Source: Nannocystis pusilla (GTDB lineage: Bacteria; Myxococcota_A; Polyangia; Nannocystales; Nannocystaceae). From it: a stretch of 64,000 nucleotides of DNA. The translations under genes were made by a program, and so were the position numbers. Location: assembly GCF_026626665.1 (NCBI RefSeq), contig NZ_JAPNKE010000002.1:3437168-3501167 (forward strand). The letters run 5' to 3'. Positions 2,673 to 56,525 of the stretch are shown here, one piece after another; within the stretch, counting starts at the first letter, position 1, and the number at the start of each line of letters is the position of its first letter. Below the pieces are notes generated by a model that saw nothing but the letters and a program-made list of their open reading frames with translations, had not been told where the DNA came from and searched no databases.

Positions 2673-5600
2673 ATGTCGCGCGCCGGCGGTGATCCCACCC
2701 CGCGGTCCTCCGGGCCGGACCCCGATCCCACGCTTGTCGGCGACCCTCCTCCGCGGCCGGACTTCGCCACCGACGAGACTCTGGCCGGAGATCTGTCGCC
2801 CCGCGCGCGGCCCCCCGCGAGCCCGCCCCCGGACCTCGACCGCTCGTCGCTCTCGCAGCGCGAGCGCGCGCTCCAGCTCACCCGTTACGTCCTCATGCGT
2901 CGCCTCGGCGCCGGCGGCATGGGTGTCGTCTACCTCGCCTACGACCCCAGCCTCGATCGCAAGGTCGCGATCAAGCTGCTGCGCGTGGCCCCCGGCGACG
3001 GCCCCGCCCAGGCCGCGCACGCTCGCCTGCTGCGCGAGGCCCAGGCGCTGGCCCGGCTGTCGCACGGCAACGTGGTCGCGGTCCACGACGTCGGCAGCTA
3101 CGACGCCGACGCCCTCACCACCATGCGGATCGGCCCGCACCGCACGGAGCCTGTCCCGAAGGACAGGGTGCCGCAGACCGCCGGCGTGTTCCTGGTGATG
3201 GAGTACGTCCCCGGCATCACCCTCGCCCAGTGGCTCGACGACCGCGTCCGCGGCGTGCGCGAGGTCCTCGACGTGTTCCTCGCCGCCGGTCGCGGCCTGG
3301 TCGCCGCGCACGCCGTCGGCATCATCCACCGCGACTTCAAGCCCGGCAACGTCCTGGTCGGAGAGACAGGTCGGATCTGCGTGTTCGACTTCGGCCTGGC
3401 GCGCCCCGCCGGCGAGGTCGAGCCGACCAGCCCCGCCGCTTCGCCCGAACCCGGCGCCCCGATCGATCCGCTGTCCTCCTCGCTCGTGTCCGGCCCGCTC
3501 ACCCGCGTGGGCACGCTCGTCGGCACGCCGGCCTACATGGCCCCGGAGCAGCGGGGCGGCGCCGCGATCGACGAGCGCGCCGATCAGTTCAGCTTCTGCG
3601 TCGCCCTCTACGAGGGCCTCTACGGCAACCGCCCGTTCAGCGGCGACAACCTGTTCGCGCTCGAGGCGGCCAAGGCCCGCGGTCGCGTCGATCCGCCGCG
3701 TCGCCCCGCCAAGGTCCCGCCGGCGATCCACCGCGCCCTCCTGCGCGGCCTCTCGGCTGAACCCGGGGACAGGTGGCCGTCGATGCAGGCGCTGCTCGAC
3801 GCGCTCGAGCGGCCGCTGCGGCGCGACCGCAGGCGCTGGGCCCTCGCCGGCGGCGGCGCGCTGCTCGTCGCCGGCGCCGTCGCCTTCGCCCTCGCCGGCG
3901 AAGCGCCTGCGCTGTGTACCGGGGCCGCCGAGGCGCTCGCGCCGACGTGGAACCCCGAGCGACGCGCCGCCCTCGACGCCGCCTTCGCGGCCACCGGCCT
4001 GCCGTACGCCCCCGACGCGGCCGCTCGCGCCGGCGCGCGCGTCGACGCCTGGGCCGAGGCGTGGATCGCCGGCCACACCGACGCGTGCGCCGCGGCCAAC
4101 ATCCGCGGCGAGCAATCACATGACCTTTGGACAGGCGCATGCACTGCCTCGAGGATCGCCGCCACGAGCTCGACGCCCTGCTCGGCGTGCTCGCCGGGGC
4201 CGACGCCGACGCCGTTGCGCACGCCCACGACGCCGTCGAGGCCTTGCCGTCCCCGGCCCGCTGCGCCGACCTCGACGCCCTCCGCGCCGACGTCGCCCCG
4301 CCCGCGCCCGCCCTCGCCGAGGCCGTCCAGGAGCTGCGCGACCAGCTCTCGCGCGCCAGCGCCGAGGCTGCGGCCGGCCACCCCGGCGCCGGCCTCAACC
4401 TGCTCGAGGCCGCCGAGCAGCGCTCGCGCGACCTCGGCTACCGCCCGCTGCGCGCCGAGGTGCTGGCGCAGCTCGCCGAGCAGCTGTTCGTCGCCAGCAA
4501 GTACGACGACGGCGTCCGCGTCTACGGCGACGCCTACTGGGAGGCGCTCGCCGCCGGCCACGACCGCCTGGCCTTCGAGACAGCCAGCGGCTTCGCCGGC
4601 CGCCTGGCGCAGACGCTCGGCCACCCCGACGACGCCCAGCCGTGGCTGCGCCACGCCGAGGCCCTCCACGAGCGCCTCGGTCGCCCGCCTCGCCTCGGCG
4701 GCGACCTCGAGTTCCGTCGCGGCCAGATCGCCGAGGCCCGCCGCGAGTACGCCACCGCCATCGACCACTACCGCCGCTCGCTCGCCGACCTGCCCGAGCG
4801 CTCGATCTCCGCCGTCACCACCCGCCAGAACCTCGCCAACGTCCACCTCAGCCTCGGTCAGCTCGAGCCGGCGCAGATCATCTTCGAGGACCTCCTGGCC
4901 CTGCGCCGCGACATCTACGGCGAGGGTCACCCGAGCAACGCCTTCTCGCTGGCCGACCTCGGCAACGTCGCCACCCTGCGCGGCGACTTCGACACCGCCG
5001 AGCAGCACCAGCGCGCCGCCCTGACGATCCTCCGCGCCGCCCTGCCCCCGCGCCACGAGCGGCTCGCCTACCCGCTGTCGGCGCTGGCCGACATCGCCGC
5101 CCAGCGCGGCGACTTCGGCGCGGCCCTCGACGCCTACGAGGAGGCGCGGGCGATCTGGGAGCACAACTTCGGCCCGCTGAGCACCCGCGTGGCCGCCATG
5201 CTCGAGCGCCTCGCCTCGGTCCAGCAGGTGCGCGGCGAGCTCGGGCTGGCCGAGCAGCACGCCACCCGCGCCCTCGCCATCTGGAGCGCCGCGCAGAGCC
5301 CCGACCCCCAGGGCATCGTCCTGGCCCACCTCGCCCTCGCGCAGATCGAGCTCGCCCGCGACAACTACGCCGCCGCCCGCGACCACACCGACAAGGCCCT
5401 GCCCCTGTCCGCCTCGGTGCTCGGCGAGGACAACCTCTATACCGCCGTCAGTCGGGCGATCCGGGGTCGCGCTCGCGGGCCTCGGCGACCTGTCGGCGGC
5501 CGAGCGCGAGGCCGACGCCGCCGTCGCGGCGATCGAGCGCAACTACGGCGGCGACTCGCTGTGGATGTCCGAGGTCCTGACCCCTCGCGCCAGGGTGCGG

Positions 5601-5848: not shown

Positions 5849-5857
5849 TCTTCGCAT

Positions 5858-5900
5858 GTCCTTTCCGCCATGTCGCAACCGACATCCGGCGGGAGCCCTA
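5858..5900. repeat. 14-bp-period GCATGTCC-type repeat array (3 units) just 3' of the kinase gene
   Basis: cgcATGtcctttcc / gccATGtcgcaacc / gacATCcggcggga, giving ATG-to-ATG spacing of 14. Confidence 0.55.
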
Positions 5901-6082: not shown

Positions 6083-8164
6083 ATGTTGTCCTGCTCTGGC
6101 CTGGTCTCGCGCGCGTACCTCACGGTCACGTGGCTCGCCCTCGCCGGCTGTTACAGCGGCTTCTCGGGCGCCATCCCTGACGAGCAGACGCCGCCGGAGC
6201 GCCCGCCCGTCAGCGAGGGCCCGCTGGGCGCCCCGCAGCTCTCACCGCTCGAGCTCGACGCCCTCTCGCCCGACCCTGCGCCTGGCGGCGTCGCCTTCGA
6301 CCTCCACGTCACCGGCGCCGGGTTCACGCGCTCCAGCGTCGTCGTCGTCGCCGGTCAAGAGCTGCCGACCACCTTCGTCTCGGGCGGCGAGTTGCACGCC
6401 CACAGCGGCCCGCGCAAGCGCGGCGACTACGAGGTGCTGGTCCGCCGCGACGACGAGGAGTCGCGCCAGCTGACCCTCGCCGTCGAGCGCTCGGCCCCGC
6501 GGATCCTCGTCCCCGCCGAGGTCGGGGTCGACGAGGACACCGAGGTCGGCCTCGTCGTCGACGTCGTCGACGTCGCCGATCCCGCGGCCCTGCGCGTCCA
6601 CGTGCTCGGCCTGCCGCCGGGCGCCACCTGGGACGAGCCGACCCGCACCTTCCGCTTCACCCCCGACTTCACCCAGGGCGGCGATCGCTGGACCGTCACG
6701 GTGCTCGCCCACGACCACGAGTCGCGCGTCGAGGCCACCTTCGACGTCGTCGTCCGCGACACCATCCAGCCGCCGTGGCCCGAGGTCGTCGACACCGAGT
6801 TCCTCGACGCCAGCGGATATGTCCGTTACCACCTGGCCCAAAAGACAGATGACTACCTCGACAGCCCGGGCTACGCCGGCCGCGAGTTCGTCGCCAAGGT
6901 CATGGTCCCGCTCGACGTCCCGCCAGAGGGCGTGCCGGTGCGGATCGGCCTGCACGGCTTCGCCACGGCCAACCCCGGCGGCACCGGCTCGGCCAACGAG
7001 ATCCGGATCTCCCCGCACGACCCCGACAACACCTACTGGTGGGGCTACGCCGATTCGCTGCCCGACGTCGAGCCCGCGGCCGGCGCGCGCGCCCGACTAC
7101 ACCATGCGCCGCGTGCTCCACCTCGTCGAGTACGTCGTGCGCCACCACCCGAGGCCGACCCGCAGCGCGTCTACGTCTACGGCAGCTCGATGGGCGGCGC
7201 CGGGGCGATGCTGCTCGGCCTCCTGCGCGGGCGTCACTTCGCGTACATCGACGCGCGCCTCGGTCAGGCGATCGCCCGCAACCACCGGCCGTCGCGGATC
7301 ACCCAGCTGTCCGGCTGGTGGGGCGCGCCGGAGCTCGACCTCGACGGCGGCGGCGGCCTGTCGGCGTGGGATCACATGGACCTGACGCGCGCCCTCGCCG
7401 ACTCGAGCGAGGCCCGCGACCAGTTCCTGTTCCTCAAGCACGGCAAGGACGACCCGACCATCCACTTCGGCGCCGCCGTCCTGCCGAGCCCGCGCACCGG
7501 CGAGAGCTTCTATCAGGCGCTGCAGAGCCGCGGCGTCGGCCACTTCGCCATCTGGGACGAGGGCGGCCACGGCGTCGCCGATCCTGTCCTCGGGGACAGC
7601 TGGTGGACCGGCTCGTGGGCGCCGATCAGCGGCGACGAGGCCACGCTGCGCCGCGACCGGGCGTTCCCCGCCTTCTCGTACTCCTCGCTCGACGACGACC
7701 CCGGCGTCGGCGTCGGCAACGGCAAGCAGGACTGGAGCGCCAACGCGGGCTTCGCCGGCGAGGTCGCCATCGCCGGCGACACCGGCTGGGACGGCGCCAT
7801 CGCCGGCGCGCTCGGCCGGTTCCTCCGCTGGGACGGCGCCTCGGTGGTCGACACCGTCGATCGCCTGCAATTCGCCCTGCGCGTCCACGCCGGCGACGGC
7901 GCCGACCCGCCCGCGCCCGGCTACCCGAGCGAGGGCGACCGGGTGATGGCCGAGCTGCCCGCGTTCGTCGACGTGACCCCGCGCCGCACCCAGGCCTTCC
8001 GCTGCCGCCCCGGCGAGCGCGTCGCCTGGTCGTTCGGCCAGGACCACGGCGAGGTGGTCGCCGGCCCCGACGGCAGCGTCACGATCCCCGCCCTGCCGCT
8101 GACCGACACCTGGACCACTCTGGTCCTGCGCCGCACGCTCACCGTGATCGCCGCCTCCCACTGA
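6083..8164 (+). CDS. lipoprotein with N-terminal Ig-like region and C-terminal alpha/beta-hydrolase (esterase/peptidase-like, GSSMGG nucleophile elbow); compensating frame excursion ~7085-7150
   Basis: The signal peptide plus lipobox is MLSCSGLVSRAYLTVTWLALAGC. GxSxG appears as YVYGSSMGGAGA. The expected segment PDYTMRRVLHLVEYVVRHHP is readable only in the frame of ORF 6819..7385. The ATG at 6083 was verified in sequence. Confidence 0.65.
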   Translation: MLSCSGLVSRAYLTVTWLALAGCYSGFSGAIPDEQTPPERPPVSEGPLGAPQLSPLELDALSPDPAPGGVAFDLHVTGAGFTRSSVVVVAGQELPTTFVSGGELHAHSGPRKRGDYEVLVRRDDEESRQLTLAVERSAPRILVPAEVGVDEDTEVGLVVDVVDVADPAALRVHVLGLPPGATWDEPTRTFRFTPDFTQGGDRWTVTVLAHDHESRVEATFDVVVRDTIQPPWPEVVDTEFLDASGYVRYHLAQKTDDYLDSPGYAGREFVAKVMVPLDVPPEGVPVRIGLHGFATANPGGTGSANEIRISPHDPDNTYWWGYADSLPDVEPAAGARARLHHAPRAPPRRVRRAPPPEADPQRVYVYGSSMGGAGAMLLGLLRGRHFAYIDARLGQAIARNHRPSRITQLSGWWGAPELDLDGGGGLSAWDHMDLTRALADSSEARDQFLFLKHGKDDPTIHFGAAVLPSPRTGESFYQALQSRGVGHFAIWDEGGHGVADPVLGDSWWTGSWAPISGDEATLRRDRAFPAFSYSSLDDDPGVGVGNGKQDWSANAGFAGEVAIAGDTGWDGAIAGALGRFLRWDGASVVDTVDRLQFALRVHAGDGADPPAPGYPSEGDRVMAELPAFVDVTPRRTQAFRCRPGERVAWSFGQDHGEVVAGPDGSVTIPALPLTDTWTTLVLRRTLTVIAASH

Positions 8165-8412
8165 CACCTGGCCCTCCGGCCATGTCCGTTCAGACATCCT
8201 TATTAGAGGGACATGCTTTAGCGAGCATGTTCTCCTCGGGTGGTCGCGGGCCCCGACGGCAGCGTCACGATCCCCGCCCTGCCGCTGACGACACCTGGAC
8301 CAATCTGGTCCTGCGCCGTACGCTCACGGCAATCGCCGCCTCGCACCAGACATGGCCCCCCGGCCATGTTCTTTCCGACCTTTTCAAAGGACATGCTCCT
8401 GCGAGCATGTTC
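8065..8412. repeat. tandem duplication (~170-bp unit x2) made of the last ~100 bp of the upstream gene plus a ~70-bp GGACATG-type palindromic element
   Basis: Copy 1 (8065-8232) includes the coding tail ...GPDGSVTIPALPLTDTWTTLVLRRTLTVIAASH* plus the element ...ggccatgtccgttcagacatcc...agggacatgctttagcgagcatgttctcctcg. Copy 2 (8237-8412) repeats both with ~90% identity. Confidence 0.8.
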
Positions 8413-8701
8413 TCCTCGACATGTTCTCGAGAGGCGTCGAATCGCGGCTCCGACCAGCGAGCGCCGGCGCACCGCTCGCCGGACCGTCGCGGCCAGGCTC
8501 AACCCTGTCGCCCGTAGCGCGCGTGCGGGGGCGTCGACCCCCGCGCGACCCGTCGACGCGCGGGCGCCTCGGCCCACGCGAGCGATTGCCTCCGTCGCTT
8601 GGGCCGCGAGCAGGGCTCACGAGCTCCGCGGATCTGGGTGATTGAGCGCGTTTGGCACCCGTCCCTCCGGCACCTCGACGAAGGCCGCTCGCTGCGGTTA
8701 G

Positions 8702-10320: not shown

Positions 10321-10365
10321 TCGAAGAGGACATGTCCGCAAGAACATGCCCTCTCGAACAGCCTG
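10321..10365. repeat. 14-bp-period GGACATGYCC repeat array (3 units) between convergent genes
   Basis: tcgaagaGGACATGTCC gcaa GAACATGCCC tctc GAACAGCC. Confidence 0.65.
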
Positions 10366-17156: not shown

Positions 17157-17900
17157 GTGAGCGGCCGGCGCTCGGACGGACCTGTCCCATCGGACACCCT
17201 CGCGGCCCTCGACCGCGCCCGCGACCAGGCCGGCCCGCACCTCTGGTTGGTCCCCGCCCCGCCCGCCGCCGGCGACGCCGACGAGGCCCTGCGCGAGCTC
17301 GACGAGCTGCTCGCCCGCGGCGAGTTCGACGAGCCCGCCGTCGCTCGCCTGGTGGCCCTGGCGCCGCGCGCCCCGGGCCGCCTGCGCGCCGTCGTGGCAG
17401 CCCTCGCGGCCGCGGGCAGCCCCGCCGCGGTGGCCGGCCTGCTCACCCTGCCGCAGGTCCCCGGCGCGCTCGAGGCGGCGGCCCGCGCCCTCGCTCGCGG
17501 CCTCACCCGCGCCCTGCCCGGCTCCGCTTCCGCGCCGGTGTTCTTCGCCCTCGACTTCCGCGGTTCGCGGGCGCGGCCGTTCCCCGACCTGCTGCGGCGC
17601 GCCCAGCTGGTCGCCGCCGATCCGAGCGGCGCCCTGCGCCTCGACGTCCTCCGCGTCGACGGCAAGCCCGCCTACCGCCTGTCCTTTTGGCCAGACACGA
17701 TCCCGCCGCGCGCCCGCGCCGAGCTCGCCCGCGCCTGCGCCGCCGACCTCGCGCTGCTCCACGGCCGCCTCGCGCGCCTCCGCGGCGCCCGCCTGTGGCT
17801 GAACGGCTTCTGCTTCCCGGACGACGGCCCGGTGTCGGTCGCCGCCCAGGGCCATCTGTTGGCCGCGTGGTTGACATGGTCCGAAGGACATGCCCCGTGA
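17157..17900 (+). CDS. hypothetical protein
   Basis: A 247-aa ORF in the same frame as the downstream AAA gene. It is separated from that gene only by a repeat element carrying two TGA codons. Confidence 0.4.
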   Translation: MSGRRSDGPVPSDTLAALDRARDQAGPHLWLVPAPPAAGDADEALRELDELLARGEFDEPAVARLVALAPRAPGRLRAVVAALAAAGSPAAVAGLLTLPQVPGALEAAARALARGLTRALPGSASAPVFFALDFRGSRARPFPDLLRRAQLVAADPSGALRLDVLRVDGKPAYRLSFWPDTIPPRARAELARACAADLALLHGRLARLRGARLWLNGFCFPDDGPVSVAAQGHLLAAWLTWSEGHAP

Positions 17901-17925
17901 GACATGACCTGAAGGACACCTCGTT
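17883..17925. repeat. 14-bp-period GGACATGCCC repeat array (3 units)
   Basis: ccGAAGGACATGCCC / cgtgAGACATGACC / tgaaGGACACCtcg. In the upstream ORF's frame it contains TGA at 17898-17900 and 17910-17912. Confidence 0.65.
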
Positions 17926-17939
17926 CGCGCGCGCGCCTC

Positions 17940-19391
17940 CGCCTGCGCGAGGCGCTGCAGGCCGGGGCGCGCGGCCTGGGCCTGCGCGCGGTCGACGAGG
18001 CGCGGGCGCTGCGGCTGTGCGAAGACGTCGGCGAGCGGCTCGACTGGCCCGTCCACACCTGGAGCGCGGCCGGCGGGCGCGACGGCCTCGGCGCCCCCGA
18101 GCCGCTGGCCGACCTCCTGCGCGGCCTCTTGCGCGACCCCGATCCCGGCTTGTGGGTGCTGCTCGATCCGCCCCCGCTCGAGCCCGTCGCCTTGCGGGCC
18201 CTCCGCGAGCTCGCGCAGCGCAGCGTCGGGCCCGCGGTCGTCGTCGTCGGCGACCTCGCGCCTGCGCTCGTCGCCATCCCCGAGCTCGAGCTGCTGGAGC
18301 TCGAGCTGCCCGACGCCGACGAGCTCACCGGCCTCGCCGCCGACCTCGTCGACGAGCTGCGGATCGCCGGCCGTCCCGGTCCTGCCGCCGCGCTCGCTCG
18401 CCGCGCCTCGCGGCTCGCCCACGCCGCGCTCGGCCTGTCCGAGCACCAGGCCCGTCGACTGCTGCGCCGCGCCGCCGACGTCCCCGCCGACGACGCCGCG
18501 CTCGCCGAGCTCGGCGCCGGCAAGGCCGAGCTGCTGCGCCGCGGCGGCCTGCTCGAGCGCGTCGAACCTGTCCCTTCCGACATGCTCGGCGGGCTCGCGC
18601 AGCTCAAGCAGTGGCTGGCCCGCCGCGCCCTCGCCCTCCGCCCCGAGGCCCGCGCCGCGGCGATCCCCGACCCGCGCGGCGTCCTGCTCGTCGGCGTGCA
18701 GGGCTGCGGCAAGAGCCTGGCGGCCCGCGTCTGCGCCCACGCGCTCGGCCTCGGCCTCCTGCGGCTGGAGCCGGGCCGGCTCTACGGCGGCACGCTGGGC
18801 GAGAGCGAGGCCAACCTGCGCCGCGTCACCGCGACGGTCGAGCGCATCGCTCCGGTCGTTTTGTGGATCGACGAGCTCGACAAGGGCCTGGCCGGCAGCG
18901 AGGGCCCGGCCAGCGACGCCGGCACCGCGGCGCGGGTGCTGGGCGGCCTGCTCACGTGGCTGCAGGAGCGCCGTCGTCCGGTGTTCGTGGTCGCCACCGC
19001 CAATCAGGTCACGCGTCTGCCGCCCGAGCTGACACGTCGCGGCCGTCTCGACGAGATCTTCTTCGTCGACCTGCCCGATGCGGACGAACGCGCTGCCATC
19101 GCGGAGATCCATCTCGAGCATGCGCCGCGCTCGCACATGGGCGCCGCCCCGGTCCTCGCTGATCCGTTGCCCGACCTCGTCGACCTCGTGCGCGCGGCCG
19201 ACGGACTCTCGGGCGCCGAGATCGAGGGCGCGATCGTGGAGGCTCGCCTCGACGCGTTCGCCGAGTCGCGACCGCTCGCGCGCGGCGACCTCGCTCGCGC
19301 GCTCGCCGCGACCATCCCGCTCAGTCGCAGTCGTGCCGGCGAAATCACGGCCCTGCGGGCGTGGGCGAGCGCTGCGGCCCGCAGGGCTTGA
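17940..19391 (+). CDS. AAA+ ATPase (single AAA module with ~250-aa N-terminal domain); start codon unresolved
   Basis: Walker A is LLVGVQGCGKSLAA and Walker B is VVLWIDELDK. The sensor/arginine-finger region reads VFVVATANQVTRLPPELTRRGRLDEIFFV. The open frame begins just after 17912, and the first ATG in frame is at 18129. Confidence 0.6.
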   Translation, partial: RLREALQAGARGLGLRAVDEARALRLCEDVGERLDWPVHTWSAAGGRDGLGAPEPLADLLRGLLRDPDPGLWVLLDPPPLEPVALRALRELAQRSVGPAVVVVGDLAPALVAIPELELLELELPDADELTGLAADLVDELRIAGRPGPAAALARRASRLAHAALGLSEHQARRLLRRAADVPADDAALAELGAGKAELLRRGGLLERVEPVPSDMLGGLAQLKQWLARRALALRPEARAAAIPDPRGVLLVGVQGCGKSLAARVCAHALGLGLLRLEPGRLYGGTLGESEANLRRVTATVERIAPVVLWIDELDKGLAGSEGPASDAGTAARVLGGLLTWLQERRRPVFVVATANQVTRLPPELTRRGRLDEIFFVDLPDADERAAIAEIHLEHAPRSHMGAAPVLADPLPDLVDLVRAADGLSGAEIEGAIVEARLDAFAESRPLARGDLARALAATIPLSRSRAGEITALRAWASAAARRA

Positions 19392-21846: not shown

Positions 21847-22420
21847 GCCCGAGCGCCGGCGCCCGGTCCGCTGGCGGCCGTGGCTGCGCGCCCTCCACCG
21901 CGACATCGGCTACGTCGCCGTCGGCCTCACCTTCGTCTACGCGCTGTCGGGCCTCGCGGTCAATCACATCGCCGACTGGGACCCGAACTTCGACAACTAC
22001 GAGGCGCGCCACCAGGTCGCCGTGCCGCTGCCCGAGGACGACCGCGCCGCCGCCGACGAGGTCCTCGCCGAGCTCTCCATCCAAAATCCGCCGACCGAGG
22101 TCTACCGCAGCGACGCGCGCGAGCTGTCGATCCTCCTCGACGGCAGCACCCTCCACGTCGATCTCGACAGCGGCGTCGTCCTCGAGGACGGCCAGCGCCC
22201 GCGCCTGTTGCTGCGGGTCGCCAACTGGCTGCACCTGAACCGCGGCAAGAAGGCCTGGACCTACATCGCCGACGGCTACGCCGTGTTCCTGCTGTTCCTC
22301 GCCGCCTCGGGCCTGTTCATGCTGCCCGGCCGCAAGGGCCTGGTCGGCCGCGGCGGCGTGCTCGTGCTGCTCGGCGTCGCCGTCCCTGTGCTGTACGTGA
22401 CCCTGTCCGGCGGGCCATGA
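21839..22420 (+). CDS. PepSY-associated TM-helix family membrane protein
   Basis: The start overlaps the upstream stop (ATGCCTGA). TM helices flank a periplasmic segment. The motif WLHLNRGKKAWTYIADGYAVFLLFL is characteristic of PepSY_TM. Confidence 0.6.
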   Translation: MPEPERRRPVRWRPWLRALHRDIGYVAVGLTFVYALSGLAVNHIADWDPNFDNYEARHQVAVPLPEDDRAAADEVLAELSIQNPPTEVYRSDARELSILLDGSTLHVDLDSGVVLEDGQRPRLLLRVANWLHLNRGKKAWTYIADGYAVFLLFLAASGLFMLPGRKGLVGRGGVLVLLGVAVPVLYVTLSGGP

Positions 22421-22540
22421 CCCGAAGGACATGGCCGCTCAGACATGCCCGAAAAGGCATGCGCTGAATTCCAGGCACCGCGCCTCGACCGGTTCGGACA
22501 TGTGCGAAGGGGCATGCCCGAACGGACATGCCCCCGAAGT
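22421..22540. repeat. large 14-bp-period GGACATGYCC repeat array (two clusters, about 8 units)
   Basis: ccGAAGGACATGGCC gctc AGACATGCCC gaaa AGGCATGCGC ... ttcGGACATGTGC gaag GGGCATGCCC gaac GGACATGCCC ccgaag. It lies between convergent genes. Confidence 0.75.
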
Positions 22541-25454: not shown

Positions 25455-26078
25455 ATGGCCACGCGCGAAGACGACTCTGGGCCGGTGCGCGGCGTCGAGC
25501 GCATCGTCCGCGCCGCGATCGAAGTGATCGCGGAGCGCGGCTTTCGAGGCGCCGCGACCAGCGAGATCGCCAGGCGGGCGGGCGTCGCCGAGGGCACGAT
25601 CTTCCGCCACTTCAAGACCAAGCAGCTGCTGCTCGACCACATCCTCGAGCCCTTCGTCGAGCGGGTGCTCGCGCCGATCGCCTTCCGCGACCTGCACCGG
25701 CTGATCGACACCGACTACCCGGACTTCGCCGACTTCCTGCGGGAGTTCGCGCGCAACCGCCTCGCGGTCGCGCGCGAGCACGTGCCGGCCCTGCGGATCT
25801 TTTTACAGGAGGTCCCGCTCAGCCCGGAGCTGCGCACGATGGTGTTCCGCCACATCGGCCGCCACGTCGTCCCCGAGCTGCTGGCCGTCATCCGCAAGTA
25901 CCAGGCGCGCGGGCAGATCCGCAGCGACCCACCGGAGACGGTCCTGCGGCTCCTCATGAGCGCCCTCGGCGGCTACATCATCACGCGCCTGGCCATCCTG
26001 CCCGACTACCCGTGGGACGACGACCGCGAGATCGAGCTCACCATCGGCGCGATGACCCGCGGCCTGCGCCCCGACTGA
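25455..26078 (+). CDS. TetR/AcrR-family transcriptional regulator
   Basis: TetR HTH: RIVRAAIEVIAERGFRGAATSEIARRAGVAEGTIFRHFKTKQLLL. Confidence 0.85.
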   Translation: MATREDDSGPVRGVERIVRAAIEVIAERGFRGAATSEIARRAGVAEGTIFRHFKTKQLLLDHILEPFVERVLAPIAFRDLHRLIDTDYPDFADFLREFARNRLAVAREHVPALRIFLQEVPLSPELRTMVFRHIGRHVVPELLAVIRKYQARGQIRSDPPETVLRLLMSALGGYIITRLAILPDYPWDDDREIELTIGAMTRGLRPD

Positions 26079-26081
26079 CCT

Positions 26082-26295
26082 GTCCCTTCGACCAGCCTCA
26101 CACGTACCCGGGACGACGCCTCACCTCGGCCATGTCCCTGAGGTCCTGTCCCTTCGACCAGCCTAACCTGCGCGCCCCCGACACGTGCGCCTCACCTCGG
26201 CCATGTCCCTGAGGTCCTGTCCTCGAGGTTCTGTCCTTTCGACCAGCCTCACCTGCGCGCCCCCGACACGTGCGCCCTGCCCATCGGCGTCGCGC
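26082..26295. repeat. about three tandem copies of a ~66-70-bp unit (CTGTCCCTTCGACCAGCCTCAC...CCTCACCTCGGCCATGTCCCTGAGGTC)
   Basis: The copies begin at about 26082, 26148 and 26231. Each contains GGCCATGTCCCTGAGGTCCTGTCC, which is related to the 14-bp family. Confidence 0.75.
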
Positions 26296-26405: not shown

Positions 26406-28111
26406 GTGTTCGGCTCGCTCCCGCCGCCGCCGCGGCGCTACTTGCCCGCGCGCGTGCGCCTCGATCGGCTCGCCGATCTCGAGGCCTGCTACGGCGAGCT
26501 CGGCGCGCGACCGCTGCCGGCCGACGACCCGTGGATCCTCGAGCAATGGCTGCGCGACTGGTCCGAGCTCGAGAGCCACCTCGCCGAGGCGCAGGCGCGG
26601 CGCCAGATCGCCACCAGCTCCAGCGCCGACGACCCCGAGGCCGCGCGCGCCTGGCTCGTCCACGTCGACGTCCTCGGCCCCGCCTGCAAACCGCTGCGCC
26701 ACGGCCTCGCGCGGCGGCTCGTCGAGCACCCGGCCGCAGCTCGCCTCCCGCCCGGCCACGCCTGCGCCCTCGCGGTGCTGCGCAACCAGGCCGACCTCCA
26801 CCGCCCCGCCCTCGTCCCGCTCGAGGCCGCCGAGCAGCACCTGTGCGCCGCCTACGGCCAGCTGCGGGCCGGCATGCGCTTCCACTGGGACGGCGCCGAC
26901 ATTCCGCTCGCCCACGTCGAGCGCAGCGACGACGACCTGACCGTTCGCGACGCGAGGCCGCCTGGCGCACCGTCGCCGCCGAGTTCCGCGCAGTGAAGCC
27001 CGAGCTCGATCACCTGTTCGACCGCCTCCTCGACAACCGCCGGGCCCAGGCCGCCGCCGCCGAGCTGCCCGACTACCGCGCCTATCGCTTCCGCCGCCTC
27101 GACCGCCTCGCCTACGGCCCCGCCGACTGCCTCGCGCTGCACGAGGCCATCGCCGCCGAGTTCGTCCCGCTCGCCGGCCGCGTCCTCCGTCGCCGCGCAG
27201 CCGCGCTCGGCCTCGACGTCCTGCGCCCGTGGGACCTCGGTGCCCTGCCCGGCGGCCCGCTCGTCCCGTTCACCCGCGAGGAGGCGCTGATCGCCGGCTG
27301 CGCCCGCGCCTTCGAGGCGGTCGACCCCGAGTTCGCCCGTCAGTTCTCGCGCCTCGCCGAACATGGCCTTTTGGACCTGATGTCGCGGCCAGGCAAGGCC
27401 GCCGGCGCCTTTCAGGTCCACCTCCACGCCAGCGGCCTCCCCTTCGTGTTCGCGGGCGCCGTCGGCCGCCACGAGGACCTGCTCACCGTCTTGCACGAGG
27501 GCGGCCACGCCTTCCACGCCCTCGCCTGCGCCGGCGACCCGCTGATCTGGAACCGCCACCCGCCGATCGAGTTCTGCGAGGTCGCGGGCATGGGCATGGA
27601 GCTGCTCGCCGCCACCCACCTGGGCGCCTTCTACGACGCCGACACCTGCGCCCGCGCGGCCCGCCACCAGCTCGAGCAGCTCGTCCTGTTCCTCCCGCAC
27701 GCCGCCGCCATCGACGCCTTCCAGCACTGGGTCTACACCCGCCCCGACGAGGCCGGCGATCGTGCGACCCGCGACGCCGCCTGGCTCGCGCAGCACTGGC
27801 GGCTGTGCCCCGGCGTCGACTGGAGCGGCCTCGAGGCCGACCGCGCCGCCTTGTGGCAGCGCCGCCTGCACGTGTTCGAGCTGCCCTTCTACTACATCGA
27901 GTACGCGATCGCCGGCCTCGGCGCGGTCCAGCTGTACCGCCGCGCCCTCGCCGAGCCCGCCGCCGCCGTCGCCGACCTGCGTCGCGCCCTCGCCCTCGGC
28001 GCCCGCGCCCGCCTGCCCGACCTGTTCGCCGCCGCCGGCCTGCACTTCGGGACAGATCGCCACACCGTGCGCCAGGCCGCCGCCGCCTGCCGCGAGCTCC
28101 TCGACCTCTGA
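26406..28111 (+). CDS. M3-family oligoendopeptidase F-like zinc metallopeptidase; frame break ~26950
   Basis: The HExxH motif is LHEGGHAFHAL, with a downstream Glu in EFCEVAGMGMELLA. The N-terminal 180 aa are in the frame of ORF 26406..26996 and the rest in the frame of ORF 26270..28111. Confidence 0.75.
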
Positions 28112-28200
28112 CCTCATATGTCCTTCAGGACATCTTCGGCAGCGCCTGTCCTTCCAGACAGCCCGCGGCAGTCGGCCTGCCGCGAGCGCCTCGACCTGTG
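28112..28200. repeat. palindromic element (GTCCTTCAGGAC; CTGTCCTTCCAGACAG) followed by a ~32-bp imperfect copy of the upstream gene's 3' end
   Basis: The gene tail is gccgcctgccgcgagctcctcgacctctga. The downstream copy is ggcctgccgcgagcgcctcgacctgtga. Confidence 0.7.
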
Positions 28201-28202
28201 AC

Positions 28203-29435
28203 TCACTCGTACGCCGTCACGTACATGTGATACGTCTCGAAGTCGACCGCGCCCGAGGCGAAGATCGTCCCCGCGTCGTCGATCGCCACGTCGACCTCCC
28301 ACGACCCGCTGTCGCAGCTGTGCACCGCCAGCGTCACGCCGGACGGGTCGAGCCGCGCCACCATCCCGCGGAACGGCGGCTCGTTGTTGTACTCGCCGCC
28401 GACCGCGATCTCACCGCTCGCGTTGACCGCGAGGTCGCCGAAGCCCCACATCCCCTCGACGAACGTGTCCCACAGCGGCGTCCCATCCGCCGCGAACTTC
28501 CCGATCTTCACCGCCGACGACCCGATCTCGGCCCCGACCACCACCGCGCCCGCGCCGTCGATCGCCGCGGTACTGAGCACCGAGAGCTCCCACGGGCGCG
28601 TCCACAGCTCCTCGCCGGACGGGTCGAACAACCGGACGCCCTCGTCCCACACCAGCGCCACCATCGCGCCCGCCGAGCCGATCGCCGCCACTTCGAGTTG
28701 CTCCGCGACCTCGAGGTCCCACAGCAGCGTCCCGTCGGCCGCGTGCTTGACCATCCGCGTCCCGTCGCCGACGGCGGCGCGGTCGCTGTACACCGTCGTC
28801 CCGTCGCCCGCGACCGCGATGTCGTAGCCCCACGCGTAGCCCTGATCGCGCGGCCCCAGGTCGCGCTCCCACAGCATCGCTCCGGCCGGGTCGAACTTGC
28901 GCAGCCACTTCCGCGGCGACACCCCGTCCTCGTCGCGGAACATCCCGTAGCCGTTGCCCTCGGCGTCGATGTCCCAGTGGACCGCCCCCGACGGGATCGG
29001 TGTCGTCGCCACCAGCGTCCCCGTCGCGTCGAACTCGCGCGACAGACCGTCGCTGAACACCCGCGCCCGCCCGTCGGCCGCGAGCGACACCTTGCCCGCG
29101 CCGCTCGTCTCCGGATCGACGAACAGCCACGCCCCGCCCTCGCACGCGAAGTCTTCCGGCGTCGAGCCCGAGTCGGTGTCGTGCATGCCCGTCGTCGTCT
29201 CGGTCGTCGCGTCGCCCGGTCCGTCGGTCGTCTCGTCCGGGCCGCCGGTCGTCTCCGCCGCGCTCGTCGTCCCCTCGCTGTCGCTCCCGCCGCCGGTCGT
29301 CCCCTCGCTGTCGCTCCCGCCCGTGGTCGTCCCCGTGCTGACGGTCCCGCCCGTGACCCCCGGGTCCTTCGGATCGCAACCTGTCACTACAGCCATGAAC
29401 CCAAGGACATGTCCAATATACCATGTTCTAATCAT
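28203..29435 (-). CDS. lipoprotein with Thr/Gly-rich linker and beta-propeller-like repeat domain
   Basis: Signal plus lipobox is MIRTWYIGHVLGFMAVVTGC. A GGAGAG SD lies upstream. Repeated motifs are WD/WE...DG...V. The ATG was verified (cat at 29433-29435). Confidence 0.6.
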   Translation of the reverse strand: MIRTWYIGHVLGFMAVVTGCDPKDPGVTGGTVSTGTTTGGSDSEGTTGGGSDSEGTTSAAETTGGPDETTDGPGDATTETTTGMHDTDSGSTPEDFACEGGAWLFVDPETSGAGKVSLAADGRARVFSDGLSREFDATGTLVATTPIPSGAVHWDIDAEGNGYGMFRDEDGVSPRKWLRKFDPAGAMLWERDLGPRDQGYAWGYDIAVAGDGTTVYSDRAAVGDGTRMVKHAADGTLLWDLEVAEQLEVAAIGSAGAMVALVWDEGVRLFDPSGEELWTRPWELSVLSTAAIDGAGAVVVGAEIGSSAVKIGKFAADGTPLWDTFVEGMWGFGDLAVNASGEIAVGGEYNNEPPFRGMVARLDPSGVTLAVHSCDSGSWEVDVAIDDAGTIFASGAVDFETYHMYVTAYE

Positions 29436-38286: not shown

Positions 38287-38340
38287 AGGACATGTCGCGG
38301 AGGACATGTCGGGACAGACATGTCCCTCAGGACCCGCGGT
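38283..38340. repeat. 14-bp-period GGACATGTCS repeat array (3-4 units)
   Basis: tGAAGGACATGTCG cgGAGGACATGTCG ggacAGACATGTCC ctcaGGAC. Confidence 0.7.
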
Positions 38341-39980: not shown

Positions 39981-40860
39981 GTGCCCAGCGGCGCGTCCCT
40001 CTCGCTCGCCCGGTCGCCGTCGTCGGCGCCGGGTTCCTCGGCGCCCCCGTGGCCGCCGCGCTCGCGGCGACCGGGGGCGTCGGCGATCCGCCTGTCCTTG
40101 CGACCACGCGCTCCGGGACATGGCCGCAAGGACATGTCCCGGAAGGCATCGAGCTCCGCCCGCTCGACGTCGCCGCACTCGCCCCGGCCGACATCGCCGC
40201 GGTCCTCGCCGGCGTGCAGTCGCTGGTCGTCTGCTACGCCCCCGGCAAGCAGCAGGACCGCCGCGAGCTCTACGTCGAGGGCACCCGGCGCCTGCTCGCC
40301 GCCGCGGTCACCCTCCCGCTCACCCGCCTCGTCTACACCTCGTCCACCTCGGCCCTGCCCGACCGCGACGCGTGGCTCGACGACGACTGCCGCGAGTGGC
40401 CCGACGAGCCGCGAGGTCGCGTGCAGCGCGAGGCCGAGGGCTGGTGCGAGACACCTGCACGCGCCACGCAGTGCCATGGACGATCCTCCGCCTCGGCGGC
40501 CTCTACGGTCCGGGTCGCGAGCTGTTCCGCCTCTACCGCGGCGCCGGCGACGACGCAGTCCTCGCGGGCGACGGCATGCAGCCGACCAACCTCATCCATT
40601 GCGAGGACGCAGTGCAGGCCGTCCTCGCCGCCTTGACCCTCGCGCCGGACGAGCGCGGCGTCATCAACGTCGTCGACGACGACCACACCCCGCGGCGCGA
40701 GATCTTCGCTCGCCTCGCCGCCCTCGCCGGGCGACCGCCCCCGCGGTGGGAGCGGCCCGCGGGTCCGGCCGCGATCGGCAAGCGGGTCGGCAACGCGCGC
40801 CTGAAGACGCTGCTGCGCGTGGCCCTCCGGCATCCCTCTCACACCCCGGCGAGCCCCTGA
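39981..40860 (+). CDS. NAD(P)-binding Rossmann-fold epimerase/oxidoreductase-like protein; start unresolved, frame break ~40445, contains an in-frame 3-unit 14-bp repeat
   Basis: GxGxxG reads VAVVGAGFLGAPVAAAL (40010-40060). Later sequence is CYAPGKQQ...LVYTSSTS. The C-terminal ~135 aa (HAVPWTILRLGGLYGPGRE...) are in another frame. Bases 40100-40141 (tccGGGACATGGCC gcaaGGACATGTCC cggaAGGCATCgag) encode ...SGTWPQGHVPEGIE... Confidence 0.5.
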
Positions 40861-42329: not shown

Positions 42330-42866
42330 ATGGCCGCCCCACCCGAACCCACACGCGGACCGCGGATCGCCCTCGCAGCGGTGATCGCAGGTCTCAGCCT
42401 CGGCCTCGACCTTTGGAGCAAGGCGTGGGTCTGGAACAACCTGCGAGACCAGGCCGCCTGGAAGGTCAGCGACAAGCTGCTGCACTTCGACTTCGCCTGC
42501 AATCCCGGCTCTGCCTTCGGGTTCCTCAACGACGTCGACTGGGCGCGCTACTTCTTCATCGTCATCACCCTGGCCGCGGTCGGCTACCTCGTCCACCTCG
42601 CGCGGACCTTGCCGACCACCAGCCGGGCCGCCTTCATCGCCATCGGTCTGATCGCCGGCGGCGCCCTCGGCAACCTCCACGACCGCCTGGTCCGGGTCTA
42701 CGCCGGCGACTACTGCGTGGTCGACTTCATCGTCGTCTACCTGTGGGGCGGCAAGACCTGGCCGGCCTTCAACATCGCCGACGCCGTCCTGGTCGCAGGG
42801 GTGCTCCTGTTCCTGCTCGTGCTGCCGCGCACCGAAGCCGCCGCCGACCATCGGCCCTCCGCCTGA
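42330..42866 (+). CDS. lspA: lipoprotein signal peptidase II
   Basis: LspA blocks are NPGSAFGFL, GGALGNLHDRL and FNIADAVL (with the catalytic Asp residues). Confidence 0.85.
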   Translation: MAAPPEPTRGPRIALAAVIAGLSLGLDLWSKAWVWNNLRDQAAWKVSDKLLHFDFACNPGSAFGFLNDVDWARYFFIVITLAAVGYLVHLARTLPTTSRAAFIAIGLIAGGALGNLHDRLVRVYAGDYCVVDFIVVYLWGGKTWPAFNIADAVLVAGVLLFLLVLPRTEAAADHRPSA

Positions 42867-43290
42867 GCCTCGTACTGCCGCGACTTGCGGCACCTGACAA
42901 TGCCGTATCGCCCCACGGCCGCGGGCCTGCGTGCCGCCTATGGTGACGCATCGCCAGTCGCGCCGCGCCACGACGTCCCCACCCGTCGGACCTCGTGCTG
43001 CCACCTTGAGGCGCCGACCCTCCGCCCTCCGCCCTGCCGCGCCTCGACGTCCCCACCCCTCGGGACCTCGTGCTGCCGCGCACCGACGGTCGGATGTCGC
43101 GCTCAGCGGTCGTGCTCAGCCCCTCGAACCGCGAATCCTGGATCCGTCAGCGCGCGCAGCGGCGACCGCGCCACCTACCCGCAACCCTTCTCGGCTGCCC
43201 TTCCGACCGTCTCTGCGGCCCGCGGAGCAGCGGCGGCTGCGCTTGCTCGCCCTGGTGCCTCGGGTACACTGGCCAGGTTTTCGGCCCTAC

Positions 43291-51289: not shown

Positions 51290-51790
51290 CGACGTCGCTG
51301 TGCCGGACGACATGTCGCGCGAGCTCCAGTCGCAGCTTCGCGACTTCGAGGTTCGTGCGAGCTCCTCGCTCGAGGTCGCGGGGCAGGACTTCCCGCTGCA
51401 CCCGCCCGCTTCGGCCCTGCCAGGCGTCGACGAGCTGTCTGCGAGCTCCTCGCTCGCGGTCGTCTCACCGCCTCTCTTTCTTCGCAGCTCCGAAGCAAGC
51501 GCGAGCACTCGGCTCGAGGTCGCATCGCCGCTCGCACTTCCTCGCAACCTCGACGCAAGCGCGAGCGCCCCGCCCGAGGTCGAATCGCCGCTTCCGTCCG
51601 CTTCGGCCATGCGCGGTCTCGCTGAGACGCTGGCGAGCTCCTCGCCCGATACTGCGTCGCCGCTTCCACTTCTTCGCGCCCTCGAAGCAAACACGAGCAC
51701 CTCGCCTGAGATCGCGTCGGTGGACGTCGCATCGCTACCGTCCACTTCGCTGGTCGCGCACGCGAGCTCGCCGCTTCCGCGTCGCAACCT
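51290..51790. repeat. ~500-bp degenerate tandem repeat (~60-66-bp units rich in GAGCTCCTCGC / CTCGAGGTCGC), Ser/Ala/Pro/Leu-rich in both strands' frames
   Basis: Recurring blocks gcgagctcctcgc...ctcgaggtcgc(a/g)... In the forward frame they give repeats like EASASTRLEVASPLALPRNLD / ASASAPPEVESPLPSAS... Confidence 0.7.
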
Positions 51791-54320: not shown

Positions 54321-54395
54321 GACTGTCCTGAGGGACATGTCCTCACGGGCATGTCCCTCGGCACCTGCTCCCGAGCACCTGCCCGAATAAACCTG
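54321..54395. repeat. 14-bp-period repeat array (5 units: ACATGTCC / GCATGTCCC / ACCTGCYCC)
   Basis: gactgtcctgaggg acatgtcctcacgg gcatgtccctcggc acctgctcccgagc acctgcccgaataa. Confidence 0.75.
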
Positions 54396-55309: not shown

Positions 55310-56113
55310 ATGGCCGACGACGATCCGATCACCGAGGGAACTCTCGATCGCCACCTCCATCGGCCGCTCGCAGCGTGGGTCCTCGAGCGGGTGCGACCGG
55401 CGCCGAGCGTCGAGCTGCTCACCCTCGCCGGACTGGTGGTCGGCCTCACCGGCGCCGTCGCCGTGCTGCTGGCCGCGCCGAGCGGCGTCGACTGGATCTT
55501 CCCCGCCTGGCTGTTGTTCGCGTTCACCGTCGCCAGCCGGTGTCGCCGCCTCCTCGCCGGCGCCGCGGAGGCCGAGGCCGGCACGCTCGAGTTTACGATC
55601 GGCGCCGCCTTTTGGGTCGCGCTGACGCTGCGAGCGGCGCCGGCCAACCCGTGGGCCTGCACCCTCGCGTCGGTGGCGCTGGTCAGCGCGCTGATCCACG
55701 TCGGGCTGCACGCCGAGCTGCGTCGCCGCTTCCGCGACCTGACCGGCGCAGGCAGCGACACAGCGCCGCCCTCGCCGCGGCCCTCGGTCGCCGCGCTGTC
55801 CCGCGGGCTCGGCCCCGCTGTGTTCCACGACATCGCGGCCGCGCTGCTCGGGCCGGAGCACACCGGCCCTCGTCCCACCCCCGGCGCGGCCCGCTCGCTG
55901 CTGGCCCCGCCGCTGCGCATGGCAGCGCCGCTGAGCCACGACACCCACCTCGCGCTGCTCTACGTCGCCACCGCCGCCGCGGCGATCCGGCTCGATCTGT
56001 CCTTCTGGACAGCCGCGCTCGCGGTCGCGGTCGGGCTCAACGTGTGGGCGCTGCTGGTCGTGTCGGCCTGGCGCCGCGCCGAGGCGCTGGTCCGCCGACT
56101 CCCGCCCGCCTGA
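55310..56113 (+). CDS. integral membrane protein (multi-TM, hypothetical)
   Basis: A 267-aa ORF with at least 5 hydrophobic helices. No confident family assignment. Confidence 0.5.
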   Translation: MADDDPITEGTLDRHLHRPLAAWVLERVRPAPSVELLTLAGLVVGLTGAVAVLLAAPSGVDWIFPAWLLFAFTVASRCRRLLAGAAEAEAGTLEFTIGAAFWVALTLRAAPANPWACTLASVALVSALIHVGLHAELRRRFRDLTGAGSDTAPPSPRPSVAALSRGLGPAVFHDIAAALLGPEHTGPRPTPGAARSLLAPPLRMAAPLSHDTHLALLYVATAAAAIRLDLSFWTAALAVAVGLNVWALLVVSAWRRAEALVRRLPPA

Positions 56114-56125
56114 GCTGCAAGTCAG

Positions 56126-56525
56126 GTGATGACTGCGCGCCGACCCGCGGGCTCAACCGAGCCGCGTACCTGGCCCAAAGGCCAGAGCGCATCCTCGCCG
56201 CAGCGCGCCCGAAGTCCGCACCTGCCCCTCAGGCAAAGTGTGACGACGCAGCGCTGCCCGCCGACTGCCGCGCCCGAGGGCCGCACCTGGCCTCAAACCT
56301 GGTGCGTCGGTTCACCGCGGCGCCAGTCCGCCGGCTACCCCCGACAGAGTCCGCACCTGACCCAAAAGCCAGGCGCATCCTCGCCGCAGCGCTGACCCGC
56401 TTGAAGTCCGCACCTGCCCCTCAGGCCAGATGTAACGCCGAAACGCTGCCTGCGGCGCCCGAAGGCCGCGCCTGGCCTCGGGCCTAGGTGCGCCGGTTCG
56501 CCGCGGCGCTGGTCCTCCGGCTGCC
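56126..56525. repeat. tandem array (about two copies of a ~195-bp unit, itself made of three related ~60-65-bp subunits carrying CCGCACCTG(N)CCC...AGGCCAG motifs), truncated on the right by the IS630 insertion
   Basis: The subunits begin at about 56150 (A), 56200 (B), 56278 (C), 56345 (A), 56402 (B) and 56458 (C). For example, gtccgcacctgacccaaaagccaggcgcatcctcgccgcagcgctg parallels cgtacctggcccaaaggccagagcgcatcctcgccgcagcgcgc. Confidence 0.7.

Follow-up and report, generated by a model that had tools for sequence, protein, structure and literature searches.

Probable short-range tandem duplications across stop codons beside palindrome arrays in Nannocystis pusilla

Introduction

Tandem duplications ascribed to slipped strands or template switching, as reviewed for Escherichia coli, are direct repeats, head to tail and tens to hundreds of bp long, with weak homology at their boundaries, copy numbers that vary between strains and sometimes palindromes or hairpins at the junctions (PMC1428787). 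A few hundred bp can be spanned by template switching at microhomology, which is an established mechanism, and repetitive extragenic palindromes (REPs) have been recorded at 4 amplification junctions (PMC1428787). Here we describe two repeats of a similar kind in a 64,000-nt stretch of Nannocystis pusilla DNA (contig NZ_JAPNKE010000002.1; hereafter the window), in which the 3' ends of an alpha/beta-hydrolase gene (locus 1) and of an M3 family peptidase gene (locus 2) recur downstream, beside palindromic elements with the motif GGACATG. Both loci are probably ordinary short-range tandem duplications straddling a stop codon. They differ from the reviewed cases in being old, fixed and partly decayed, and in having been seen by comparative genomics rather than as selected amplifications.

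The elements invite comparison with REPs and bacterial interspersed mosaic elements (BIMEs) of enterobacteria and pseudomonads, which are likewise abundant extragenic imperfect palindromes clustered just past stop codons and occasional partners in illegitimate recombination. In Nannocystis, however, the units form 14-nt-periodic GGACATGTCC arrays, and the duplications span ~100-200 nt rather than kilobases. None of the listed arrays carries the GT(A/G)G head of REPs (GTAG/GTGG), their cores reading GGACATGTCC, and the gene tables of the examined loci contain no REP-associated tyrosine (Y1) transposase (RAYT) or other transposase. Join-points of duplications associated with REPs were reportedly described by Shyamala et al. 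in 1990. Mycobacterial interspersed repetitive units (MIRUs), a class of variable number tandem repeats (VNTRs), are 40-100-nt intergenic tandem repeats of a high-GC genome that abut or overlap stop codons and vary in copy number between strains. The Nannocystis repeats are alike in these traits; MIRUs are scattered over many loci as one family of related units, whereas each Nannocystis unit is locus-specific DNA made of a gene tail and the local array. Spacers in animal mitochondrial genomes that arise by tandem duplication-random loss likewise contain decaying partial copies of the neighbouring gene, of which one copy remains functional (PMC5122201); the present case differs in that the chromosome is bacterial, no more than the final 29-112 nt of a gene are duplicated, and gene order is unchanged.

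Duplication of the hydrolase gene end

Repeat search and pairwise alignment resolve locus 1 into two head-to-tail units, 8053-8238 and 8239-8418, with no DNA in between. Each unit of ~185 nt consists of the last 112 nt of the hydrolase gene followed by a 74-nt two-hairpin element, and BLAST of the locus against itself aligns them at 86% identity over 186 nt (E=2e-53), the tail parts agreeing at 101/111 positions (91%) and the element parts at 56/69 (81%). An earlier reading of the window from its letters alone (the sequence-only reading) had noticed the tandem repeat of tail and element at 8065-8412, and the alignment bears this out with the slightly wider limits given above. It had also described the second coding copy as diverged, and this copy indeed carries 13 private changes, among them a former stop codon altered from TGA to CAG (8347-8349), and a 1-nt deletion, and translates to VVAGPDGSVTIPALPLTTPGPIWSCAVR. 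The deletion may be a sequencing error, since the assembly contains homopolymer-type frameshifts in two genes. All orthologous hydrolases end in ...TLVLRRT(L/V)TVIAA(S/A)H*, as does copy 1, which is therefore the working end of the gene. Element copy 1 belongs to a 14-nt-periodic GGACATGTCC array and has a predicted RNA fold with a minimum free energy (MFE) of -27.2 (z=-2.4).

The hydrolase locus was compared with those of L001 (96% DNA identity to the window), Nannocystis punicea (L002) and L003. The tail is single in 3/3 of these relatives and is followed at the same site by an array of GGACATG-type units, so the element predates the duplication. At locus 1 a contiguous block of gene tail and pre-existing array was thus duplicated in place, and the view that simple insertion of an element does not produce such a layout is upheld. 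When sites are scored against L001, 11 states are common to both copies, 8 are private to copy 1 and 13 to copy 2, from which it follows that the duplication is about as old as the split from L001; this is the pattern that would be expected of duplication in place and subsequent decay. The right boundary lies at 8418/8419. The sequence at the left boundary, CGAGGTGGTC (8050-8059), matches the array unit CGACATGTTC just past the right boundary (8417-8426) at 7/10 positions, which is compatible with slipped mispairing, though short of proof.

Two further repeats have been seen 3' of the same gene. N. punicea has a 100-nt x 2 tandem repeat of 90% identity at L002 8226-8425, which has no GGACATG and is absent from the window. 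The Nannocystaceae-like contig L105 has about five ~57-nt tandem units at 4924-5200, each with a CCTGCCCC..GGACATG(T/C)CC pair, and no copy of the tail was found among its arrays and repeats. These arrays indicate that the hydrolase 3' site has held arrays across a deep divergence.

The M3 peptidase and gene X junction

At locus 2 the last 29 nt of the M3 gene (T, 28084-28112) recur 61 nt downstream (T', 28174-28202) with 26/28 identical positions, a score matched by 0/1000 shuffles, and the recurrence of the M3 tail that the sequence-only reading had pointed out is accordingly real. The stop codon of T' (28199-28201) lies 1 nt away from that of a convergent gene, here called gene X. The comparison covered L084, L089 (second N. 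pusilla strain), N. punicea, N. bainbridge, N. radixulma, L087 and L088. The pair of T and T' is found in three separate assemblies (the window, L084 and L089), which have homologous but unequal spacers of 61 nt, 113 nt and ~145 nt, respectively, and L089 has an extra middle partial copy that aligns to a unit of M3 tail plus X tail (p about 0.003-0.006). Gene X is absent from N. bainbridge, N. radixulma, L087 and L088, all four of which have one M3 tail. The M3/X junction of N. punicea forms a clean tandem array, 118-nt x 3.0 at 87% identity, whose unit consists of ~85 nt of M3 tail, 1 nt, and ~25 nt of X tail; the M3 stop codon is kept in the first copy and the last copy abuts gene X. A GGACATG element was looked for in this array and none was present.

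Locus 2 therefore reads, from these alignments, as the decayed remnant of a tandem duplication of two abutting convergent gene ends, and it is older than locus 1. The window spacer (28113-28173) probably represents an M3 tail copy that has decayed. A collinear alignment of the spacer hairpins with the M3 coding sequence CCTGCACTTCGGGACAG is marginal (p=0.07 in the window, 0.02 in L084) and offers the suggestion that the hairpins derive from coding sequence; the middle copy of L089 is better supported. The loci had been presented as two independent cases, which is right as far as the events are concerned; they are not equivalent, locus 2 being old, decayed and multi-copy. Comparison of orthologous loci, which had been proposed for dating the duplications, places locus 1 near the split from L001 and makes T' common to three strains.

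A scheme in which gene X and T' were inserted into an ancestral array was considered and dropped, as N. punicea and the second N. pusilla strain show that convergent M3/X genes with duplicated junctions are the norm. T' also pairs with the preceding spacer in a GC-rich hairpin (window 28163-28183, CGCGGCAG-TCGGC-CTGCCGCG), and L084 has at ~1978-2009 a T' hairpin with a different stem, CTCGCGGC-N16-GCCGCGAG. Such stems may explain why these 29 nt are conserved, for example as a terminator of gene X.

Recurrence in Nannocystis

A scan of 211 gene ends in ~235 kb of Nannocystaceae DNA, in which copies of each tail were sought downstream and compared with a null, left four cases above that null: loci 1 and 2, a case in N. 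bainbridge and a repeat after the window gene that ends at 42866. The N. bainbridge case (L085 3453-3592) is an independent one, in which the terminal 40 nt of a gene are present twice together with its array; the period is 65 nt, the flanks are TCGCCGCG / TCGCGCGCG, and the ortholog in the window (17826-17956) is single-copy. The repeat following the gene that ends at 42866 has no element. Intergenic tandem duplications were found both with arrays (26079-26276 and 56165-56525) and without them (L002 8226-8425 and 42962-43077). Tandem duplication is thus a general tendency in Nannocystis, with or without elements. Between two N. pusilla strains of 96.4% identity over 21 kb, 3/3 insertions or deletions (indels) of at least 50 nt fall in hairpin-array spacers; they include 86 nt in the locus 2 spacer and one 73-nt unit at 26122, the second strain having one such unit fewer than the window.

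The region of that unit, 26079-26290, is a 66-73-nt tandem repeat of ~3 units with CCTGTCCC...GGCCATGTCCC, placed between the gene that ends at 26078 and the M3 gene. The motif CCTCGTGCTGCCGCGCACCGA, which belongs to the end of the gene that stops at 42866, is repeated at 42817-43085, and non-coding tandem repeats that have no GGACATG cores occupy 51394-51719 (60-nt) and 42962-43088 (39/74-nt).

Proposed mechanism and points that weigh against it

The duplications would have arisen by slippage during replication, by a switch of template inside a fork, or by illegitimate, unequal exchange that needed little or no homology. The first copy would retain the complete reading frame and, in a convergent pair, the last copy would keep the other gene complete; since both genes stay complete, the duplication would be harmless and retained, and the redundant copy would be free to decay. 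On this scheme locus 1 reflects one duplication of a ~185-nt block (112-nt tail plus 74-nt array) around the split from the 96%-identical relative. At locus 2 the M3/X junction, whose stop codons lie 1 nt apart, would have been tandemly duplicated: N. punicea would retain three clean 118-nt copies, and in the N. pusilla group decay or deletion would have reduced the inner copies to a spacer of variable length that bears hairpins, leaving only the 29 nt by the X stop codon obvious. The succession of tail, element and tail can be understood from the position of the arrays, with no need for a special mechanism, because they sit against stop codons and a duplication with its breakpoint left of the array copies the gene tail. 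Large indels between Nannocystis strains fall mainly in hairpin-array spacers, and the arrays may stall replication and so favour slippage. The role of the element may at most be to facilitate slippage. Of the sequence-only reading's suggestion of element-mediated slippage or recombination, the class of mechanism remains likely and the mediation by the element finds no support, for the array precedes the duplication in three relatives, and both the N. punicea M3 triplication and L002 8226-8425 have no element.

Several observations pull in the other direction. Homology at the boundaries is weak, with 7/10 positions matching at locus 1 and a stretch of ~1 nt in N. punicea (in the L085 case it is TCGCCGCG / TCGCGCGCG), and because the copies have diverged by ~10-20%, the mechanism can no longer be read from the junctions. 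As reported above, the window spacer resembles the M3 tail only marginally (p=0.07). In the element part of locus 1, a region taken as neutral, copy 1, copy 2 and L001 are nearly equidistant (81/75/78%), and ACATGG is found in copy 2, L002 and L003 as against ACCTGG in copy 1 and L001, which conflicts with an origin after the split; judged by these alignments, the duplication might instead be older and have been lost later in L001. Finally, CTGTGACTC occurs both in T' and in the authentic tail of L088, a more distant relative, which could hint at import of foreign DNA.

Alternative explanations

A bolder version of the duplication account, which we regard as doubtful, is that intergenic spacers in Nannocystis repeatedly originate through duplication of gene 3' ends, with decaying tails turning into hairpins, or alternatively that the arrays trigger duplication by stalling replication. 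The decaying coding copies may then have been reshaped in place into TGTCC-N4-GGACA hairpins, and the birth of a spacer may notably have parted abutting convergent genes such as M3/X, duplicated in N. punicea and the N. pusilla group. If this were true, some of the elements would come from gene tails instead of insertion.

Import by homology-facilitated illegitimate recombination is unlikely. It supposes that DNA of a related strain entered by homologous recombination at one end and by illegitimate recombination at the other, leaving a partial second tail, and array, from the donor. Such an origin would account for the element parts of the two copies standing as far from one another as from the 96% relative, for the ACATGG and CACGG that copy 2 shares with N. 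punicea or L003, for the CTGTGACTC common to T' and the L088 tail, and for the presence of gene X in some species only. Most of the differences of copy 2, however, are private and found in no sampled lineage, the two copies share 11 derived states relative to L001, and identity to L001 is alike on both flanks of the duplication (96.0% on one side, 94.3% on the other). The three N. punicea copies likewise share species-specific states (GACC vs GAGC), which fits duplication in place.

We hold it very unlikely that a mobile palindromic element duplicated or carried its flanks on insertion, whether as a very long target-site duplication or by transduction. The sequence-only reading had raised a mobilisation mechanism of this kind, and the tail-element-tail layout at two loci within one window, the abundance of the element (GGACATG occurs 35 times against 5.7 expected) and the strong variation of arrays between species at the same site would suit it. 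Against it, the array is present in the locus 1 relatives that have no duplication and was itself duplicated along with the tail; the duplicated tails vary in length (112, 40 and 29 nt, and ~85+25 nt in N. punicea); the N. punicea tail duplication contains no element; copies are strictly adjacent, with no dispersed copy of either tail in the ~235 kb; and no transposase, integrase or reverse transcriptase was seen near the loci. No new mobilisation mechanism is indicated, and with this candidate removed, what remains is of modest value: a documented birth and decay of intergenic DNA and pseudo-tails in a very large high-GC myxobacterial genome.

Lower still in our estimate stands the remnant of a site-specific integration, with attL/attR at the gene 3' end and most of the integrated element later deleted. 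Direct repeats at 3' ends are typical of integrative elements, and gene X is variably present at locus 2; yet just 61-74 nt separate the repeats in the window and 61-145 nt of hairpin spacer across the locus 2 assemblies, gene X lies outside the repeats and not between them, no integrase was seen, no related genome showed an island with an integrase between two tail copies, and the relatives have the same array with no repeat. Hardly any weight can be given to an expanded repeat created by the assembly, the artefact that had been named as a possible refutation: although the assembly does contain homopolymer-type frameshifts in two genes, the copies differ at ~14% of positions, which assemblers would not create, and T and T' of locus 2 are reproduced in L084 and L089.

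A diversity-generating retroelement (DGR), with the gene tail as variable repeat (VR) and the downstream copy as template repeat (TR), has next to no probability and was rejected on the substitution pattern and the absence of a nearby reverse transcriptase, for despite a superficially VR/TR-like ~100-nt repeat of ~90% identity just downstream of the 3' end, A stands in copy 2 at only 3/9 substitutions and in copy 1 at 0/9, no reverse transcriptase lies within ~6 kb (the neighbours being TPR/kinase, DUF218 and guanylate cyclase proteins and unknowns), orthologs agree closely in the protein tail, which is not hypervariable, and the repeat continues past the stop codon into the element.

Table 1. 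Features of the two loci and example arrays, in window positions.
Feature	Position	Strand	Remarks
alpha/beta-hydrolase family gene, 694 aa	6080..8164	+	orthologs at most 95% identity, 88% in N. punicea; 3' end is tail copy 1
Tail copy 1, last 112 nt of hydrolase gene with stop	8053..8164	+	begins unit 1; repeat search, alignment
Element copy 1	8165..8238	.	hairpins CCTGGCC..GGCCATG and GGACATGCT..AGCATGTTC, AT-rich spacer between
Tail copy 2, decaying pseudo-tail	8239..8349	+	101/111 identical to copy 1; 13 copy-2-specific changes
Element copy 2 (to 8418) and next array unit GACATGTTCT	8350..8432	.	fold MFE -35.6, z=-4.9
M3 family peptidase gene	26406..28111	+	1-nt frameshift near 26945 vs 568-aa orthologs
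T, authentic last 29 nt of M3 gene with stop	28084..28112	+	identical to N. bainbridge tail
Spacer	28113..28173	.	hairpins ATGTCC-TTCA-GGACAT and CCTGTCC-TTCC-AGACAGC; homologous to longer L084/L089 spacers
T', tail copy	28174..28202	+	26/28 identical to T; also in L084, L089
Gene X, 410 aa, lipoprotein-like, convergent	28203..29435	-	only in Nannocystis: pusilla, exedens, punicea
Example arrays	1337-1388, 5852-5875, 10328-10351, 17872-17909	.	intergenic 14-nt units
Example arrays	22413-22533, 38288-38325, 40116-40139, 54333-54356	.	intergenic 14-nt units

Sequences compared

The window has a G+C content of 71.7%. A protein of Nannocystis pusilla matches its M3 peptidase fragment at 100% identity, and its hydrolase is 95% identical to a protein from a Logan contig and 88% identical to that of N. 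punicea, which assigns the window to N. pusilla (Myxococcota, Nannocystaceae). A search of genome contigs with the M3 peptidase returned only distant homologs (40-49% identity), and the M3 orthologs were obtained through protein searches and the contigs that encode the matches. Metagenome search with the hydrolase gave mostly distant loci, L105 (69% identity) being the only informative one.

Relative to orthologs, homopolymer-type frameshifts occur in two window genes, the hydrolase (~7087 and ~7150) and the M3 gene (~26945). Those of the hydrolase are deletions of -2 (~7087) and -1 (~7150) that compensate each other and leave ~20-25 residues scrambled; that of M3 is a -1 deletion within a C-run, and in the second N. 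pusilla assembly M3 is frameshifted differently. They are probably homopolymer errors of long reads, or else signs of pseudogenisation.

The 14-nt palindrome arrays

The GGACATGTCC arrays are a more interesting object than the duplications. The unit is a degenerate 10-nt palindrome, GGACATGTCC, followed by 4 nt, which gives a period of 14 nt; CATG cores are spaced by 14 nt 22 times, by 28 nt 8 times and by 42 nt 9 times. Adjacent units pair into tetraloop hairpins, and the arrays tested have fold z-scores of ~-1 to -5. All 12 arrays with 14-nt spacing lie outside the bodies of open reading frames, and half of them (6/12) start 2-16 nt past a stop codon. Arrays also occur in other Nannocystis species, where they differ strongly at the same site, and in L105, and they are rare in the more distant myxobacterial loci L091-L104. 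An Rfam search of the window gave no match, no description of these arrays was found in the literature on Nannocystis or myxobacterial REP elements, and they appear to be undescribed so far.

In L085, as at window positions 17870-17900, the final ~8 codons of a conserved gene are overlapped by an array, and a three-unit array (GAACATGG.., GGACATGTCC.., GTTCATGG..) encodes the start and signal peptide predicted for gene X (MIRTWYIGHVLGFMAVVTGC; 29395-29435, minus strand), so that arrays can be partly coding. The 187-nt intergenic tandem duplication at 56165-56525 (79% identity), which lies 3' of the gene that ends at 56113, consists of hairpins of the CCTGGCC/GGCCAGG type, which are a variant of the CATG-core element with CCTG.

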